From Bispira polyomma (taxonomy: Eukaryota): a stretch of 64,000 nucleotides of DNA. This document shows, piece after piece, positions 11,560 through 22,070 of this stretch (its first letter is position 1; each line of letters begins with the position of its first letter). The stretch is from assembly GCA_965649765.1 (NCBI GenBank), contig OZ287757.1, positions 33,852,001 to 33,916,000 of the forward strand, given 5' to 3'. A model generated the notes under the pieces. The model was not told where the DNA came from. It saw only the letters and a list, made by a program, of their open reading frames with translations, and did no database searches. The translations under genes were made by a program, and so were the position numbers.

Positions 11560-12404
11560 TCGACCACAGCTTTATTTTTGATGACAAATGACTTAAATAC
11601 AACTAAAACTTAACTCTACTAATGTACTTGGCCAATATAAAATAAGTTACCGTTAACTTGTGTTTTCAATTTCAGCATAGTATATATAGACCAGAATGCA
11701 ACTTTATATTTAAATTTAATAATTTTACCCACAAATTACCAAAAGCACTGTAATTAAGTTTAACTCCACCTGTATTATTTTCACTGCTGTGGTAAAAAAA
11801 TCTTTATCAACTCCAGCGTAATAAATTCCATAAATGCATTAATTACCAACCAGATTTAAAATTACAAAGAATTAAAACATTTTTTTACACCATAATTACT
11901 CTGCACACAATCTATACATATTTTAGCATTAAGAATTCTCACCAAAAAATATCACATCACATTCTCCTATTTTCAAGATATTCCATACAAAAGACACAAG
12001 CTTTCAACTGAAACATGTTTTACACAATATATATCAAATCATTTACACCACAAAATAAGCAACACATAAATTAGGTGACACATATTTCTAAACTATAAAA
12101 AAAAAGAAAAACAGTAATGATATTAGGAAAAATTTAAAATATAAATTGTAAAAAAAAACACCACATTTTTAAATTTTTTTAGTAGAATGCAATGAATGGA
12201 CACAACACAGAGACACAAATAAATGTATTTTGTTAAGGCCATTTTGTTACGTTGCCATAACAACACATATCCCAAACAATCTGCTCCCACTGACGTGTTG
12301 TGGTTTCCAGTCGCCACCGGTAGTAGGACTACGTTAGGTGGCAACCTTCATAGTCGTCATAGGAATAGATTTGTTGTCGTAGATGTTACCACGGAAACTG
12401 TAAC
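11560..12404 (-). other. SELENOT: SELENOT exon 6, non-coding 3' UTR exon carrying the SECIS; 3' end uncertain
   Basis: Acceptor TATTTTGTGCAG|GTTAC at 12404; SECIS follows within about 45 nt; AATAAA on the minus strand at 11576-11571 is a candidate poly(A) signal. Confidence 0.8.
12286..12362 (-). promoter_or_regulatory. SECIS element (type II) of SELENOT
   Basis: mRNA reads AUGAA-GGUUGCCACC-U-AA-C-GUAGU-CCU-ACUAC-C-GGUGGCGACU-GGAA: 5' AUGA / 3' GGAA non-Watson-Crick core, 10-bp helix II (12346-12337 with 12318-12309), unpaired AA, apical mini-stem, and lower helix UGACG/CGUCA. Confidence 0.92.
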
Positions 12405-12407
12405 CTG

Positions 12408-12778
12408 CACAAAATAGGTGAAAAATTTTTTTTTTTACTTTGATACAACAAGCTTCAGTCAGTGTCTACAGTGAGTGTTTACATGAACTTTAAAGATGAG
12501 TCACAGTTGAGCCACATGATGTAGAACTCATACCTGAATTTCCCTCTTAGCTGAAGAAAAAGAAGACAAACAACTCCATCCTGCCCCCCCCCACACAAAA
12601 TAGGTGAAAAATTTTTTTTTTTACTTTGATACAACAAGCTTCAGTCAGTGTCTACAGTGAGTGTTTACATGAACTTTAAAGATGACTCACAGTTGAGCCA
12701 CATGATGTAGAACTCATACCTGAATTTCCCTCTTAGCTGAAGAAAAAGAAGACAAACAACTCCATCCTCTCCCCCCCC
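12408..12778. repeat. Near-perfect tandem duplication, about 186 bp x2, in SELENOT intron 5
   Basis: CACAAAATAGGTGAAAAATTTT... starts at 12408 and 12594; only about 2-3 differences. Confidence 0.93.
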
Positions 12779-13135
12779 TCCCTCCTACTGTAAATATATT
12801 GGTCATTCTGTGGAACTTTTTTTTTCTGCTCTACCCAATTTAATTAATTTACAATGTGTATAGATTAGATATCGGTGCCCAAGACCCAAAACTATATAAG
12901 AAATATTGCGGATATCACTAAACAACTTACCCAACTAAGTCTACTCTTATCTAGTACTTTTTGGGCTGCTTAATCTTTACTCTAAGAGAAATCAAAGCGT
13001 CATAACATCCTAATCATAGCTTTCCCAGGCAATATTTGATTGTAAAAGAGACATAAACATGGTGATAATCGATCAATTAGCCACATACCTTAGGCCCACA
13101 CAGAACACATGGTAGAAGGACTTGGTCGTTTGGTA

Positions 13136-13236
13136 TTAGGTGTTGATGCTCATTTTCATATTGTTTTCTACGATCTGGAAAAACTCCTGGGCCGTAGGGA
13201 TCCGTCCTATCTCCAACTTGGACCACACAGGAACAT
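13136..13236 (-). CDS. SELENOT: SELENOT exon 5, coding part (exon continues as 3' UTR to 13089)
   Basis: TCCTCCTTAG|AT GTT CCT GTG TGG TCC AAG; DVPVWSKLEIGRIPTAQEFFQIVENNMKMSINT*; donor AAG|GTATGT at 13088. Overlaps the end of ORF-track entry 13136..13351. Confidence 0.96.
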
Positions 13237-16200
13237 CTAAGGAGGACGGGCATAGCGTAAAATATAGTGAAACTACTATTATCAGAACTATTATATTAGC
13301 CAAAATATTCAATTTTATGAACACAGTATTTCCCAAATTTATGTTTTCCAATTTTATTTTTTATTAATTTAATACAGAAATGTCCTTTTTTTTTTAACGA
13401 ACCTTCTATTATCTAAACAAAATCTCGCGTTCTGAACATGTCCGGATAATATAGGTTCTTCTATAGTAATGCTTTATCTGGGGTGGACATACCCTAAACT
13501 CTATTACGAGGGAGTTTAGGGTATGAAGAATAATTAGTTATTATACAGTGTATTTAGTTGGGGATTTAACGTCGCTTTCAACAGCTTAACTCATGTCACA
13601 ACGGCCAGATTCAATGGTGGAATAATTGAATATTTTTGAATTGGGATATTTAATGTCGATTCTAGTACCTGTTTAGGTTATATTGGGATGGGTAGTTGGA
13701 AACGCTGGAGAAAACACAGCAAACAGTGGCTCAAGGTTCTCCACTGAAACCAGTGGCCCACAGTAAGTAACTACCATCTTTCCCACATAGGCATCAACGG
13801 GAGTCGAACCCACGCCAGCCAATCCCATACGTGAGAGACCAGTGATTGTGAAATGCAATTCTTGCTAACCACTAGGCCACCGCAGCCCCCCAATAGTGGA
13901 AGAAACCAGGGCTAAACCACTGTAAACCACCAATCTGCGGCAAGTACAGTAGACTTTGTATAATTAGAACCAGTCAAATGTAAGTATAGGTGGAACCATT
14001 CTTGAGGTTCCAACATCAGCATCAACATCATGTATTTTTGTAGGTAATAATGGAAGTTTGCTATAACTAGAACCAAATCCTGTGGATATTAGAGGTTCTA
14101 GTCATACAGAGTCTACTGTAATTGACTTATTTAGTTGGAATTTACACCTTTTTCAACAGTAAAAGGGTCTATTTGTATAATAGAAAGGTTTATAACACAA
14201 AAGAAGCATTTTTTTGTATATAACAGTAGAAAAACAAAAAACATTTGGAAGAGTGAAAATGAGTTTATCAATTGACTCCTACACCCGTCAAATCCAAGTT
14301 ATTGTAATTGAAATACAAAAGTAAAGCCTAAGTCCCAGGCTGGTTTGCATGGTGTGAAATTATAAAATTAGAAATACGGGCAAAGGTTAAAATTTCTTCT
14401 AAAAATTTAGAGGCAAATATATTTAATCCACATGCAATTTGCATCTTGCGTCACCTTTGATTTAGGACTCTGATAGTAAACATATATTTCACATGCGAAG
14501 GAATAAATTAATTTTAAATATTGAAAGCAAAGAAATGCTTCTTTTTGTGATTATTAGAAGCCTATATACATATTAAGGAAGCAATTTGCTTCTTGCTTCC
14601 CTTTATTTTCGGACCCTCATATGGATCTGATATTGGAATACATTTACAGTCACAACCCAAGACTTAACTAGAAAGGTTCATCTTCTTCTCTAACCACAGA
14701 TTATAAAGTTTCATAATTACAAATGTTTTTTTTATTTTTTCTCTTAAACCAAAGATAGTAAATGTGTACTATTTGAAAATGTTATTGTAATTGGAATGTT
14801 TGTAAGTAGAATACAGTTTACGTAATAAAATGCAGCCACTTACCGTTAAATGAAATCTCAAAAGCTCCTGTAGAGAGGAGCTGGCCTTCTATAGCGTTGC
14901 TAAGGAAAAATATCATCATACAGGCATAAATCTGAAACAGTGCAACAGAAGCAATGTGTTTACTGAGGAACAAAACATCAACAAATAGGGAGTAGATCTG
15001 AAATACATGCAGTTCAAGAATGAAACAATAAGTTGTCTAATTACTATATGCTTGTTTGTGAAAGGAGAGGTGTTACTAACGCTTGTTTTGGCGCTCACAA
15101 AATACAGAAAAAGTTTTTTTATTGTTTACACAATTAAATAAAACACCCTTTTACTAATAACAACACGATGTTGTACTTTAAGGTTTTGATGCAAGTTGTC
15201 CAAAATAATTCTTTAGTCAAACTTGGAAAGTCTTCTGTTTTTCCAACCAAATTGTGGTCACAGTTATTGAATTTAGTGTTTTTGGTCTATTTTGACAGCT
15301 TTAAAACATAAGGAAGTTTTTTTGTCATTATTGACAGAGATATTTGATTTAACTACTAATAAAATTTATTTTTTTCTGGGGTTATTTTGTACCACCTTAA
15401 CACATTTACAATCAATCACATATAACCCCCCCCCCCCTCTCCCCTATTCTTTTGTGTGTTTGTCAATTTACACTAAAGTTTGAGTTACACAATGCTACAG
15501 TAGGTATGAGCGATAATAAGAAATCTTAAACACCAATAATATAAAGCTTATAAGACACAGTGTAAGGAAAAAGTACTTACTTTGTTTTCCACGGCCCAGG
15601 TATACACACCCGGTGTCCCCAGATTCAACATTGTGAAGGGATTCTGTCCACTAATTATCATAACTATTAAAACTAATTTTGCTATACCTGAAAAAAAAAC
15701 AGAAATATACAAACTTTACAAATAGGTAACTACTAAGTGATTGGAACGGGTAGTTGGAAACACTGGAGGAAACACTGCATACAGTTGATCAAGGTTCTGC
15801 ACTGAAACCAGCGGCCCACAGTAAGGAACTACCACCTTTCCCACATAGGCATCGACGGGATTCGAACTCACGCCGCCTAGAGGTGAGAGACCAGTGATTG
15901 TGAAGCGCAATGCTTGCTAACCACTAGGCCACCGCGGCCCCATCAAAGCCACAGTACGTTAGGTTCTATGATACAATATTGGGTGTTACAATATCACAAA
16001 ATCCCCAAAACAAAGCCGGATTTCTGTGGCTAACTTACATGTTGGGAGTACTTCCTGTACAACAGTTTACATATGATGTGTAAACCTTCTAATTTCATGT
16101 ATTTTGAGTCAAGAAAGAAACTTGTTTTCTCACCTAAAAACTGAGACATATACTGATTGACCATTGGTGGAGGGAAGTTGTCTCCTTCAACACGCAGGTC

Positions 16201-18751
16201 AGGATATTTTTGGTGGATTGCGCGTGAAAACTGCTCAAACGCATTCCGGTACCCTCAGGAGTAGCTGGAACAAAGAAAATTGTACTTATTTGTATTTACT
16301 TTCAAATTGATATTAATTTCTCTGCCTGTGTTTGTTATTCAATGATTGACCTATTAGGGACAGAATATTTGGTCTAACAGTACCCTTATATTTTAGTAAA
16401 CGAATTTGTCTAGTAAATTGCTTAGAGAGCACCAAGAAGCAGCAGGACATTTAACTGTCTTTGACTTGGCAAGAATCGCCAGCACATATACAAGAGGTTT
16501 CGATTTGGGGACCTGATTCCTAACATTTCACTTGTAAGTCGGGTGGTCCATGAATCGTAAGCAAATGGTTAGAACTCGGGTCCCACTAAAAAGTTCAAAT
16601 TCGGGTCCTCGCCAATATCAAATTGGCTAATTTTGCATAAAATTCTCCCTTTGTCGCCATACACGTACTTTCGATATATACATCAGTCACAGACATAATA
16701 AAAAACAAGGTCGGCAGATTTATTAAATACCCCAACAAATAGAAGAGCTCAGAACACTGTCCTCATTAACATAATATATCTATCATGTAACTGCCGTGAC
16801 ATATACTGGCCAGTGATTGCTCCATTAAACAATATTTAAATAAGCAGCTCATGGAAATTTACAAAAGCGGCTTTATTTTATTAAATACCCCAGTAATTAG
16901 CAGAACGCTTTCCTCACTAACATAATGTATCTATCACGTAACTGACAAAAGCGGCTTTATTTTCTTAAATACCCCAACAAAATTTCTAATTTTTTTTTAA
17001 TTACTTAAAACCTGAATCTTAACACTTTACTTGGAAATTGGGGACCCAATTTGTGACAATTTTGTAAGAATTCAGTGACCCAATTTCTAACCACTTTGAA
17101 CATAATTACCTTATATCTACAATTGATAAAACTCCCTGAAAATAGAAGTTGTCTTTTGTTAGTGTACTTGACGTTGAATCTGCAGATTTCACAATTAAAG
17201 GGATGAAATAGATTTCACAGTTAAAGGGATGAAATTTACTGAAGCATTAATAAATAGGGGGCTGTGACTTAAAAGTTATTTTAAACGATGTGATTAGGCA
17301 TCGGGTGACAGGCGCCAAAGAAATTATTAGACGTCGGGTCCCCGAAGTTCAAGTATTTAATATACGTTGGGTCCCATTATTTCTATGAAGTAATTTATTG
17401 AAGTTATAACTTATATAATCCAAATGTATAAATTATAAGAATTGTTTGTTGTTAAATAATATTTTAACATCTATAGATTAAAATACAGCTCCAATTTTCG
17501 CCTAAAACGATCTGTGAAATAAGCCCATTAAGAAAATGTTAAACTCCCGAATCTACGACATACAAGGCTATATATCAATATAGGCGCACAGGTATAAAGT
17601 AATATATGTTACCGATTACTGCCGAATCAATGGTCAGAATCAGTAAAATATCCTTACTTGCAAGTAGGTGCTTTAGGGTGCTCACAACAATGACAAATTG
17701 CCTTATTTGCATCCAATTCTTTTATTGTCGCTCATTTACACATGCTTCACTTCCCCATTAATATCATAATTGAAATAATAGAACTTCACAGAAGTCCCTA
17801 AAAAAGGCTATATTCATCTTGTGTTCAAACAAAAAATATTGTAAGGTACTAAAACAACCATATATCGTTGGGTATATTTGATTTGAGGGTCTTGTAAATT
17901 CGAAATTTCTGTTTTTCTTCAATAACCAAATGTGTTTTATATATTTTACTTATTTATCTTCTATTTTAACATCTCTAGATTTAAATACAGTTTCAATTTT
18001 TGCCAAGAACGATCTTTTTCAATGTGAAATAAGCCCATAAAGAAATGGTTAAAACTTGCAAATCTACGAGACACAAGGCTATATATCCCTTATATGTGCA
18101 CAGCTTTGCTAAAAAAAAAGGTGACCTGATGCCAATTTAATACTTGCACATCAGGGACCCGATGCTTATTCCCTTGCTATTTTCAATGCTGCGACAAAAT
18201 TTAAAACTTCAATCTACGGTATCGTGACTTAAAGCCCATATAGAACTGGAGATTTCTAAAAACAGAAAAAAAAAACTTATTTGTTTGAAAAATTTTCAAA
18301 AAGTTTTTAGAATTTCTAGCTCTATGTGGGCTCGTGCCACGGCTATAAGACAGCAGACTGACGTTAGCCGCGATAACCACGTCTACTGGGAATGAATTAC
18401 GATCAGAATCGTGTGCAATTGTAAAAATTACAGTTGTAATGAAAAATAAAATGATCTCGCTCTTCTATCGTACCTTCATATTTCTGCCATGGGTATTAAA
18501 TAACTATTTACTATTAGCCTAGCATATGGACGATATGACCGCATTAAATTAGGAGACATCCGCATGTGACGAAGGATTTCGACTTACCAGTATAGGAATT
18601 TTAAAGAAGGCCCTGCAAATGTTGATAATCGGGCCTCCGGAATATTTTTCGTAGATTTTTGTGCTTCAACTGGCTTCGTAAAATCCCTGAATGAAAGAAA
18701 ACAAACGGCGACAAATAAGCCTATAACAGCCAATTGCGACGTTTCAGCCAT
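13136..18751 (-). CDS. SELENOT: Selenoprotein T (thioredoxin-like Rdx family, CxxU), spliced CDS of 5 exons, 591 nt / 196 aa
   Basis: Exons of 164+131+107+88+101 nt join in frame at GT-AG junctions: MAETSQLAVIGLFVAVCFLSFRDFTKPVEAQKSTKNIPEARLSTFAGPSLKFLYCYSUGYRNAFEQFSRAIHQKYPDLRVEGDNFPPPMVNQYMSQFLGIAKLVLIVMIISGQNPFTMLNLGTPGVYTWAVENKIYACMMIFFLSNAIEGQLLSTGAFEISFNDVPVWSKLEIGRIPTAQEFFQIVENNMKMSINT*. Recognisable SelT motifs: CxSUGY, YPDxxxEGxN, ENKxYACMM, STGAFEI, NDVPVWSKLE. Confidence 0.97.
13623..13890 (-). mobile_element. SINE family 1 inserted into an older SINE (SELENOT intron 4)
   Basis: TSD CAAT(G/A)GTGGAA at 13612-13622 and 13891-13901; host SINE at about 13555-13945. Confidence 0.85.
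14844..14931 (-). CDS. SELENOT: SELENOT exon 4
   Basis: CTGTTTCAG|ATT TAT GCC TGT...TTT AAC G|GTAAGT; IYACMMIFFLSNAIEGQLLSTGAFEISFN. Confidence 0.97.
15581..15687 (-). CDS. SELENOT: SELENOT exon 3 (hydrophobic membrane-associated segment)
   Basis: TTTTTTCAG|GT ATA GCA AAA...GAA AAC AAA|GTAAGT; IAKLVLIVMIISGQNPF...WAVENK. Confidence 0.96.
15740..15940 (-). mobile_element. SINE family 1 (3' tail lost), SELENOT intron 2
   Basis: High identity to the 47480-47680 copy. Confidence 0.88.
16134..16264 (-). CDS. SELENOT: SELENOT exon 2, contains the Sec (UGA) codon at 16257-16255
   Basis: Acceptor TTTGTTCCAG|C TAC TCC TGA GGG TAC; reads (C)YSUGYRNAFEQFSRAIHQKYPDLRVEGDNFPPP...; donor AG|GTGAGA. Confidence 0.97.
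16215..16247 (-). promoter_or_regulatory. SRE-like (Sec redefinition element) coding-region hairpin 3' of the UGA
   Basis: After UGA plus a 7-nt spacer (GGGUACC), GGAAUGCGUUUGAG-CAGUU-UUCACGCGCAAUCC pairs at 12 of 14 positions (2 G-U) with a 5-nt loop. Confidence 0.6.
16500..18172. mobile_element. One or two decayed foldback-type DNA elements in SELENOT intron 1
   Basis: CGGGTCCC motifs near 16578, 16602, 17335, 17369 and inverse GGGACCC at about 17041, 18154; internal duplications 17460-17590/17965-18100 and 16720-16800/16875-16945. Confidence 0.45.
18588..18751 (-). CDS. SELENOT: SELENOT exon 1 (start codon, signal-peptide-like hydrophobic N-terminus)
   Basis: AAAAATGGCT start context; MAETSQLAVIGLFVAVCFLSF...GPSLKFLY+TG; donor TG|GTAAGT at 18587, phase 2. 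Confidence 0.93.
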
Positions 18752-19869: not shown

Positions 19870-22070
19870 TTTAAGAGCAATATGTACACATGATTTGGGT
19901 GACGTTTTTGATAGGCAAGCGCCATTTGTATCTAGACTGACAAAAAAAGATTCTGCACATTGGTTGTCTGATTCTTATCGACATGCAAAGAACTTGGCAA
20001 ATAAGCTAAGAATCCACTGAACAGAAGTTGGCTTTGTCGCCAAATTGCTCGGTGCAATATACTTGTAAACAAGGATAAGTCAGACTAGTACAATAAACTG
20101 ATCTCAGACAATAGTCACAAGAAAGTTATGGCATGAGCTGCGCATGACCCTGAATATGGTTTCCAAAGTGACAGTTCCATCCCACAAATCTGATAAGTCA
20201 TTAGCTGACCAGTTTGCTTCTTTTTTTTGCAGACAAAATTAGCAAAATTAGAGATACTTTCGTTTTTTTTTCAGCACTAAAATGATGTTCCTCTTCTTTC
20301 TTATCCTCCAGAAATTATTGCCTTTACTAAAGTCTCTGAAGATGCTGTTGATAAAATCAATTGTAACTCGGCTACAAAATCCTGTATGTTGAACCCATTA
20401 CCAACATCTCTCATCAAGGAATTGTGTGATATACTACTCCCATCTATTACAAAGTTGGTTAACTGCCCACTTATTAAGGGACATGTACCTGATGTTTTCA
20501 AAACTGCTGTGGTTACTCCTTTTATTAAGAAGGCTTCTCTTTAAGCTGATGATCTAAAGAACTATCGCCCTGTATTTAATCTTATATTCATATGAAAACT
20601 GGTTGAATGTGTGGCTGCTAAGCAACTATTAGGTCATATCAATGACCACGACTTGGACAACCCACACCAGTCTGCATATAAACAGGTCATTCAACTAAGA
20701 CAACTCTTCTGTCCATAAAAAAAATAAAGTTCATTTTACCTTGTTAAGAGACGAACCTACTGCCTTGATGTTGCTCAACCACTCTGCTGCCTTTGATTCC
20801 ATTGATCATTCCACTCTTCTCAGTTGTCTTCAGACTTGGTTAGGAGTTGGGGGGCTTGGTTCTTAAATGGTTCATGAACTTCCTACTTAACTGAGCGTTA
20901 TCAGTCGATAAAAATTGGTTCTACTTTGTCTGAGATTTGTAAACTCTTGTTTGGTGTTCCCCATGGTTCTGTTTTGGGCCCTTTGTTGTTTTCATTGTAC
21001 ACTGCTCCTCTCAGTTTGGTGATTGGAAAATATAAAGGTATTAAATTTCATTTTTATGCAGATGACACCCAAGTTTATGTGAACTTATGCCAGAAGAATA
21101 CATCTGGTGCCTTTAAACAGGTGAATATGTACCTTGGTGGTGTCAAAGAGTGGATGTTAACTAGTAAACTTAAATTAAATACTGACAAGACTGAGTTTAT
21201 ACTTTTAGGTTTAAAAAGACAGAGGAAGAAGTTGAAAGCATGTTTCCCAATTGATATCCTGGGTGGCCCCTTCTGCCCACCTCATTCAGGTAAGAACGTG
21301 GGCGTGTGGTTCGACTCTGATTTTCCTTTTCTAAACATGTTCGGAGTGTCTGCAAAAGTTGTTTTGTGCAACTCTGAGACTTCAGACGTGTTAGGCGGTT
21401 TCTTACTCATGATGCTTTTATACTTGTGGCCTATGCTTTTGTCAGTGGTCGGTTGGATTACTGTAAGTCACTTTTTAGGAGCCCCTCCAAGTTCAATCTA
21501 CGCAAATTACACTGTATTCAAAATAGTGCAGCTAGAATTGTGTCAAACACCGGTCAATACAACAGTGTAACTCCTGTTCTTAAAAAATTACATTGGCTTC
21601 CTGTTGAACAGCACTCACTGTTTAAAACTGCCACACTTGTTTATAAATTTCTTCACACTGGTTTTCCTAAGTGTTTTGCCTTATATCTATCCTCTTACAG
21701 TAGTTCTTACAATTCCAGGCACAGTCAGAGTGGTGGTAATTTCCTTGTCGTTCCAAAGTTTTACCCGTCTGCTCAAAAGTCAGTTGAACAGTTTGGTTAT
21801 AGCTTTGACGCTCCCATTGTTTGGAATGCTCTTCCTGATGGGATTTGTGCATTCCCCTCTCTAATCTCTTTTAGAAATCAGCTTAAAACTCACCTATACA
21901 CCAAGACACACCCACCCTAGTCTTAATCATCCCCTAGTGTTCTATGTTCCCAACCTTTTTTCTGTCCCTTGATATTAAAATTAGATCACTGTCTTGGTGC
22001 TGTTGCGCCTTAGAGTCGCCTTTGTAAAGGGGAGATTAAGCGCTATAAAAGTCAAATTACAATTACAATC
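19870..22070 (+). mobile_element. 5'-truncated, frameshifted L2/CR1-clade non-LTR retrotransposon (RT ORF2 relic with 3' tail)
   Basis: ORFs 20926-21570 (GVPHGSVLGPLLFSLY, FYADDTQVY, LKLNTDKTE) and 21426-21920 (RLDYC, IQNSAARIV, TPVLKKLHWLPV, LKTHLY); 3' end GCGCCTTAGAG...AAGCGCTATAAAAG followed by an (ATTACA)n tail. Confidence 0.92.

Follow-up and report, generated by a model that had tools for sequence, protein, structure and literature searches.

A candidate Sec redefinition element 3' of the SelT UGA codon in Bispira polyomma, and a tendency toward structure at the same position in Sec-type orthologs

A SelT gene of Bispira polyomma, contained in a 64,000-nt stretch of contig OZ287757.1 (assembly GCA_965649765.1) that was analysed as a whole and is called the window here, raises the question of whether a hairpin just 3' of its in-frame UGA is a Sec redefinition element (SRE). 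In an earlier note on this DNA, the hairpin was read from the sequence, and it was proposed that a two-part recoding system (SRE plus SECIS) may be conserved deep in bilaterians, with synonymous codons constrained by structure.

The SelT gene, its hairpin and its SECIS-like element

The Sec-type SelT gene was found on the minus strand, on which all gene features given below lie, and was predicted to have five coding exons with AG/GT ends, 196 codons and a C-Y-S-U motif. Exon 1 (18588..18751) is a predicted open frame that begins with ATG at 18751; its last letters before a GT donor, TG, belong to the CxxU Cys codon that is split by the intron. Exon 2 (16134..16264) carries the Sec UGA and the hairpin, exon 3 (15581..15687) has AG/GT ends and maintains the frame, exon 4 (14844..14931) is a further predicted coding exon, and exon 5 (13089..13236) contains the end of the coding sequence (CDS), where TAA (13138-13136) is followed by 47 nt of 3'UTR up to a predicted donor. 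The in-frame TGA (16255..16257) stands opposite Cys or TGA in the aligned orthologs. Besides CxxU, the protein has an Rdx thioredoxin-like fold, an N-terminal hydrophobic segment and a central hydrophobic insert; exons 2 and 5 gave weak Pfam Rdx matches, the homologs carry the name SelT, and identity to the nearest loci among the matches listed is 62 to 65%. In a protein tree with weak support and an arbitrary root, the window SelT clustered with L085, L087, L008, L066 and others, and the neighboring group contained an oyster cluster, for which the bivalve group is named. Exon 2 had a single match in its own genome, SelT itself, and DNA contigs X1 and X2, which span 15920-16478, showed no letter differing from the window. 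All three sequencing runs behaved as genomic DNA, and no splicing was seen in them. A search of the same genome with the Rdx profile returned no match, which does not imply absence. Introns 2 and 4 hold SINE-like repeats (15740-15941 and 13635-13900) of very high copy number, with depth in the millions, and a retroelement fragment with reverse transcriptase similarity (RVT_1) lies upstream of SelT at 20878-21570 on the plus strand.

The hairpin described in the earlier note (12 of 14 pairs, a 5-nt loop and a 7-nt spacer within the SelT CDS) was reproduced at every coordinate. After the spacer (16248..16254), the 7 nt of which were read from the sequence, the candidate SRE hairpin (16215..16247) pairs nt 8-21 after the UGA with nt 27-40; the 14-nt 5' arm occupies 16247-16234, the loop 16233-16229 and the 14-nt 3' arm 16228-16215, and the two unpaired positions of the stem are A.A and U.C mismatches. 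The minimum free energy (MFE) was -11.9 kcal/mol, and when the whole predicted spliced CDS was folded, 11 pairs had probabilities of 0.97 to 1.0 and the closing G-U pair 0.71. If the first base after the UGA is nt 1, the numbers of two paired nucleotides add up to 48, which places third codon positions opposite one another (9-39, 12-36, 15-33, 18-30 and 21-27). As in known SREs, the hairpin is a coding-region element downstream of an in-frame Sec UGA, and its spacer falls within the range of about 2 to 10 nt at which such stems start. Exon 1 contains a second stable fold, of -14.8 kcal/mol and, in a 45-nt window, a z of about -3.3; after splicing it lies about 60 to 69 nt 5' of the UGA, and among the matches listed it is not common to the orthologs on average.

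A type II SECIS-like element (12296..12359) was recognized from its fold and from Rfam, with an AUGA/GA core, a 10-bp helix II, AA and an apical mini-stem. All of the type II motif features are present, and the match of Rfam SECIS_1 (RF00031) to 12359-12296 covers the full model length, but its score of 21.4 bits (E = 0.37) is below the gathering score of 35 bits; at the gathering threshold, Rfam gave no match anywhere in the window. SECIS_1 matches were found at 9 of 17 TGA loci and at none of the 3 Cys loci scanned, none of the 9 reaching 35 bits. The element's stability corresponds to a z of -2.2. After removal of a predicted 3'UTR intron (12405..13088; GT donor, pyrimidine-AG acceptor), the stop codon and the SECIS-like element would be 92 nt apart, and the corresponding distances in nine ortholog transcripts are 39 to 269 nt. 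By this gene model, the UGA and a 3'UTR SECIS-like element would belong to the same mRNA, as in genes with known SREs. A stop codon less than about 50 nt above the last junction escapes nonsense-mediated decay; the SelT stop, 47 nt above the predicted donor, is just inside this limit. The predicted intron also contains a 186-bp tandem duplicate (12778-12407) whose copies are identical at 182 of 186 positions; each copy has a micro-exon-like motif of pyrimidine-AG, 17 nt and GT, and one copy is skipped in a contig of run X3.

Stability of the hairpin and fate of its pairs among orthologs

The number of dinucleotide shuffles as stable as the native sequence was 1 of 200 for 33 nt (a window fitted post hoc), 5 of 200 for 45 nt and 11 of 200 for 60 nt. 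Against synonymous-codon nulls, 6 to 66 of 2,000 were as stable at 42 to 45 nt, 33 to 75 at 60 nt and 107 to 839 at 75 to 90 nt; z values for the hairpin window ranged from -2.0 to -3.6 at 42 to 45 nt and from about -1.6 to -2.5 at 60 nt (also given as -2.4 to -2.7 at 45 to 60 nt). When codons were shuffled within the gene, the post-UGA window ranked first of 15 (z = -2.37), with two other CDS windows nearly equal (-2.26 and -2.14). When stems could open anywhere in nt 7-13 and end anywhere up to nt 78, the best one was equalled in 39 of 100 nulls (z = -0.28), and 3.7% of the synonymous variants of the encoded peptide reached 12 of 14 pairs in the window register. The stability of the hairpin is thus modestly above chance, only in short windows, and the excess fades at 75 to 90 nt. 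The comparison of MFE with codon-shuffled controls, which the earlier note had suggested, leaned toward the hairpin at 42 to 60 nt and gave no significant excess at 75 to 90 nt or in the free-length best-stem search.

SelT orthologs were collected by a pattern scan of metagenome contigs (at least 115 loci); the pattern sets the reading frame and limits the amino acids at 11 codons, equally for Sec-type and Cys-type genes. Together with the window, at least 96 TGA loci and at least 20 Cys loci were obtained, and clustering at 90% identity gave 59 Sec and 14 Cys representatives among the matches listed. Group names are labels from an arbitrarily rooted tree, with named neighbors only for the bivalve, fish SELENOT2, rotifer, mite and insect groups; the loci include no vertebrate SELENOT1 DNA and no close relatives of the window species. 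Sec-type L012, L015, L060 and L019 were nested, with low support, among Cys-type rotifer- and mite-like sequences, and this nesting suggests that several independent Sec-to-Cys changes may have occurred.

Deep pair-level conservation of the window hairpin was considered and rejected, because there was no significant conservation or covariation and no RNAalifold consensus and because Cys genes match the small excess of the register. In counts that treat related sequences as independent, the pairs of the hairpin were formed at 62.3% in the 59 listed Sec-type sequences and at 61.7% after shuffling (125 of 500 shuffles as high), and in the 10 nearest listed sequences at 72.5% versus 70.0% (29 of 500); RNAalifold found no consensus pair in either set. 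The deep structural conservation that had been proposed for this hairpin is thus unsupported, and since its pairs lack significant conservation and covariation, part of what the earlier note had named as counting against the element was indeed observed. Measured against synonymous nulls among the matches listed, the window register reached z values of 2.9 (9 nearest relatives), 1.0 (49 other Sec genes) and 2.5 (14 Cys genes); because the Cys genes match the near-relative excess, the register is not Sec specific. Only one of the 58 other listed Sec-type representatives, L016, has 12 of 14 pairs in this register, and its cluster mate L065 has 11. Compared with the window stem, L016 carries double changes from U-A to G-C at 12-36 and from U-A to C-G at 18-30, with 24 of 33 bases identical; the null probability of its match is 0.02, uncorrected for 58 tries. 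Two fish SELENOT2-like loci form only 7 of 14 pairs in the window register. The human SELENOT stem, which we take to have a more distant 3' partner at about codons 18-21, would for this reason not be the window hairpin.

Structure after the UGA in Sec-type genes

The picture changes when position, and not a particular set of pairs, is compared. Over nt 1-60 after the UGA, the mean z of the listed Sec orthologs was -1.63, with 31 of 58 below -1.64, whereas in the Cys orthologs, a small (14 listed, 5 as transcripts) and AT-rich control, it was -0.06, with 1 of 14 below that value (Mann-Whitney P = 6e-5, related sequences being treated as independent). At offsets of 30, 45 and 60 nt, both listed groups had mean z values of about 0. 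With kinship again ignored, the difference persisted without the largest clade (38 listed Sec genes; mean z = -1.37; P = 0.0015) and in the 23 listed Sec genes whose GC3 is close to that of the Cys genes (mean z = -1.59; P = 0.0004). All seven hand-made Sec groups had a lower mean z just after the UGA than at nt 61-120 among the matches listed. In the listed full-length transcripts, shuffling codons within each gene put the post-UGA window at the top of about 15 windows in 17 of 43 Sec-type genes and in none of the 5 Cys-type genes. When pairing of nt 1-6 was prevented, 27 of the 58 listed Sec genes opened their first stable stem at nt 12, versus 9 expected. The 3' partners vary among these genes, the sum i+j being 64 and 61, 55, 50, 59, 77-82 or 48. 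Among the nine nearest listed relatives of the window gene, six have a significant stem of free length that opens at nt 8-13, and none has when the search is shifted by 45 nt; their fixed 60-nt mean z is only -0.27, and a strong stem is missing from three of the near relatives (L087, L066 and L007). In the best-stem test, the Sec-versus-Cys difference among the matches listed gave P values of 0.018 and, without the largest clade, 0.11. To judge from these alignments, structure at the post-UGA position tends to be conserved in Sec-type SelT, its pairs apparently being rebuilt lineage by lineage.

The largest clade has a stem of its own. In its 20 listed representatives (L006, L009, L014, L018, L022, L025 and 14 others), which we would guess to be crustacean plankton, nt 12-19 pair with nt 45-52 and nt 21-28 with nt 33-40; this two-helix stem is 88.1% paired, a value reached in 0 of 500 shuffles, and RNAalifold finds a consensus. 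Under synonymous nulls, 282 of 320 pairs are formed versus 211 expected, compared with 128 of 224 versus 127 in Cys genes. Codon choice follows the stem: all 20 sequences use TAT for Tyr at codon 9, versus 8 of 33 outside the stem, and Ile codon 12 is ATA in 11 of 12, versus 1 of 33 downstream. The synonymous constraint by structure that had been foreseen for the window hairpin thus finds its support in this clade. Moreover, pair 24-37 passes from G-C to A-U through two synonymous changes in three sequences on two branches. The outer helix is mildly enriched in the 38 other listed Sec genes (201 of 304 pairs versus 181), and the window SelT has 5 of its 8 pairs. On this comparative evidence, the clade stem is a better-supported candidate SRE than the window hairpin.

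Ten other Sec codons of the Bispira genome were examined, a deiodinase fragment with TGA (L132) being left out. The SPS2 gene (L120, G000:C4, nt 466 onward) has a stem that starts at nt 10-11 after TGA (z = -3.0); the GGGTGT directly after this TGA is the readthrough hexanucleotide described in the available text of PMC4561486. In four deiodinase-like genes, two of which are tandem paralogs, the post-UGA window ranked 1 of 25, 3 of 16, 1 of 14 and 1 of 21 in within-gene shuffles, with z values of -1.4, -0.4, -2.9 and -3.4 against a local-GC null. Indeed, in L128, L130 and L131 (G000:C7 and C3), the most overstructured 60-nt coding window is the one directly after the UGA, with a stem that begins at nt 12-13 in L130 and L131. 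Among the GPx genes, one forms a stem beginning at nt 28 (z = -3.7); the three other GPx genes and Sel15, three of these four being spliced by prediction, showed no post-UGA excess (z = 0.2 to 1.0). A SelP_N profile search of the genome gave no match, which does not imply absence, and both of its MsrA genes carry Cys. Excess structure is Sec linked and position specific across SelT orthologs, and it is also seen in SPS2 and deiodinase-like genes. Of the two-part system proposed in the earlier note, the Sec-type SelT gene, the SECIS-like element and a post-UGA excess in Sec and not in Cys orthologs were borne out, and conservation of the pairs of this hairpin was not.

Interpretation and comparison with known elements

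We consider it reasonably probable that the hairpin 7 nt after the SelT UGA is an SRE that works with the SECIS-like element and is conserved by position. Given the geometry of a downstream stem relative to the mRNA entry of a ribosome with UGA in its A site, and by analogy with SELENON and SELENOP, the SelT stem would stand at or just outside the entry. As in those two mRNAs, it may disfavor termination, and SBP2 and eEFSec would gain time to deliver Sec-tRNA. The orthologs suggest that selection may act on the opening of a stem about 7 to 13 nt after the UGA and not on particular pairs, so that the 5' arm (codons 3-7) would take different 3' partners in each lineage; the short 33-nt stem of the window gene would then be a lineage-specific version.

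It is rather unlikely, in our judgment, that the family trend is real but the window hairpin is a neutral chance fold favored by the peptide, with SECIS alone recoding the UGA. The nulls as good in the best-stem search (39 of 100), the share of synonymous variants that reach 12 of 14 pairs (3.7%), the window register without covariation and the three of nine near listed relatives that have no strong stem and presumably are still selenoproteins would all fit such a fold, but the hairpin window is the best of 15 in its gene, its site coincides with structure in the orthologs and in SPS2 and the deiodinase-like genes of Bispira, and L016 rebuilds the stem by two double changes. The data reveal selection on structure and not the direction of its effect; the stem might be selected and Sec linked but damp or tune recoding, or shield the mRNA from decay, without stimulating Sec insertion. 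A proximal stem-loop of SELENOS inhibits UGA recoding (PMC6844570, available text), and the SELENOP paper, in the part available, cautions that not all structures linked to a UGA need have one function (PMC5727441); nevertheless, both of the mutation-tested coding elements in the accounts available, the SELENON SRE and SELENOP SRE1, stimulate, and we regard a damping or shielding role as improbable. Finally, the stem is near the exon start, 17 nt below the acceptor, where it could serve exon 2 splicing or slow translation while the CxxU/C motif folds. This is very improbable, since the motif is also present in Cys-type orthologs, with an acceptor AG at the same site in the genomic ones, yet these have no excess, and since deiodinase-like genes without an intron near the UGA do have one.

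A broader proposal can be made, which we hold tentatively, at a little short of even chances: that SREs are not peculiar to a subset of vertebrate mRNAs, and that SelT mRNAs, and probably those of deiodinases, have required them at a defined position since ancient times in animals and some protists, with a stem that opens about 7 to 13 nt after the UGA, a 3' partner that is swapped repeatedly, and decay upon change from Sec to Cys. If this is true, covariation-based screens would miss most such elements. The changing base-pair register suggests that position outweighs shape, and the contrast between Sec and Cys across SelT orthologs is comparative evidence tying such stems to Sec decoding. The window SelT is suited to a clean test, because in its stem third codon positions face third codon positions.

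A coding hairpin in vertebrate SELENOT was predicted by EvoFold from an eight-way vertebrate alignment (Pedersen 2006, PMC1440920, available text), in agreement with the earlier note; its pairing begins 8 bases downstream of the UGA, and that of the window SelT begins after 7 nt. In the available text of the literature, including PMC3541580, PMC8704476, PMC9599142, PMC12936836, PMC5133445, PMC2248747 and PMC13134290, we found no invertebrate SelT SRE, no contrast between Sec and Cys for a SelT SRE and no deiodinase SRE. As far as the literature available goes, mutation-tested SREs are confined to a few vertebrate mRNAs, and the SelT element is still a prediction there. The alignments of Howard 2005 reportedly may include invertebrates, and the novelty of an invertebrate SelT SRE is therefore provisional.

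Among known systems, SELENOP SRE1 stimulates recoding in mutation tests, but SELENOP, unlike the window SelT, is a vertebrate multi-UGA mRNA with two SECIS elements (PMC5727441, available text). The SELENON (SEPN1) SRE resembles the window stem in being a coding stem-loop less than 10 nt 3' of a Sec UGA, combined with a 3'UTR SECIS (PMC1440920 and PMC8704476, in the parts available), and mutation results in the available text of the latter review agree with the earlier note that it stimulates UGA decoding; it is, however, conserved in its pairs and proven by mutation, whereas the SelT stem is predicted and not pair conserved. In SPS genes, including those of invertebrates, SRE or HRE stems start about 2 to 10 nt after the TGA and differ in sequence between lineages (Mariotti 2015, PMC4561486, available text). 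SPS is another gene family, and the main text and nine supplements of PMC4561486 contain neither SelT nor a SelT Cys contrast, but its stems, as described in the text available, are a precedent for position-conserved, lineage-specific structure of the kind seen in SelT. SREs are already known as a kind of element, and the window SelT hairpin is a candidate further case, alone modest and expected; the more interesting lead is the family-wide pattern of conserved position and swapped pairs.
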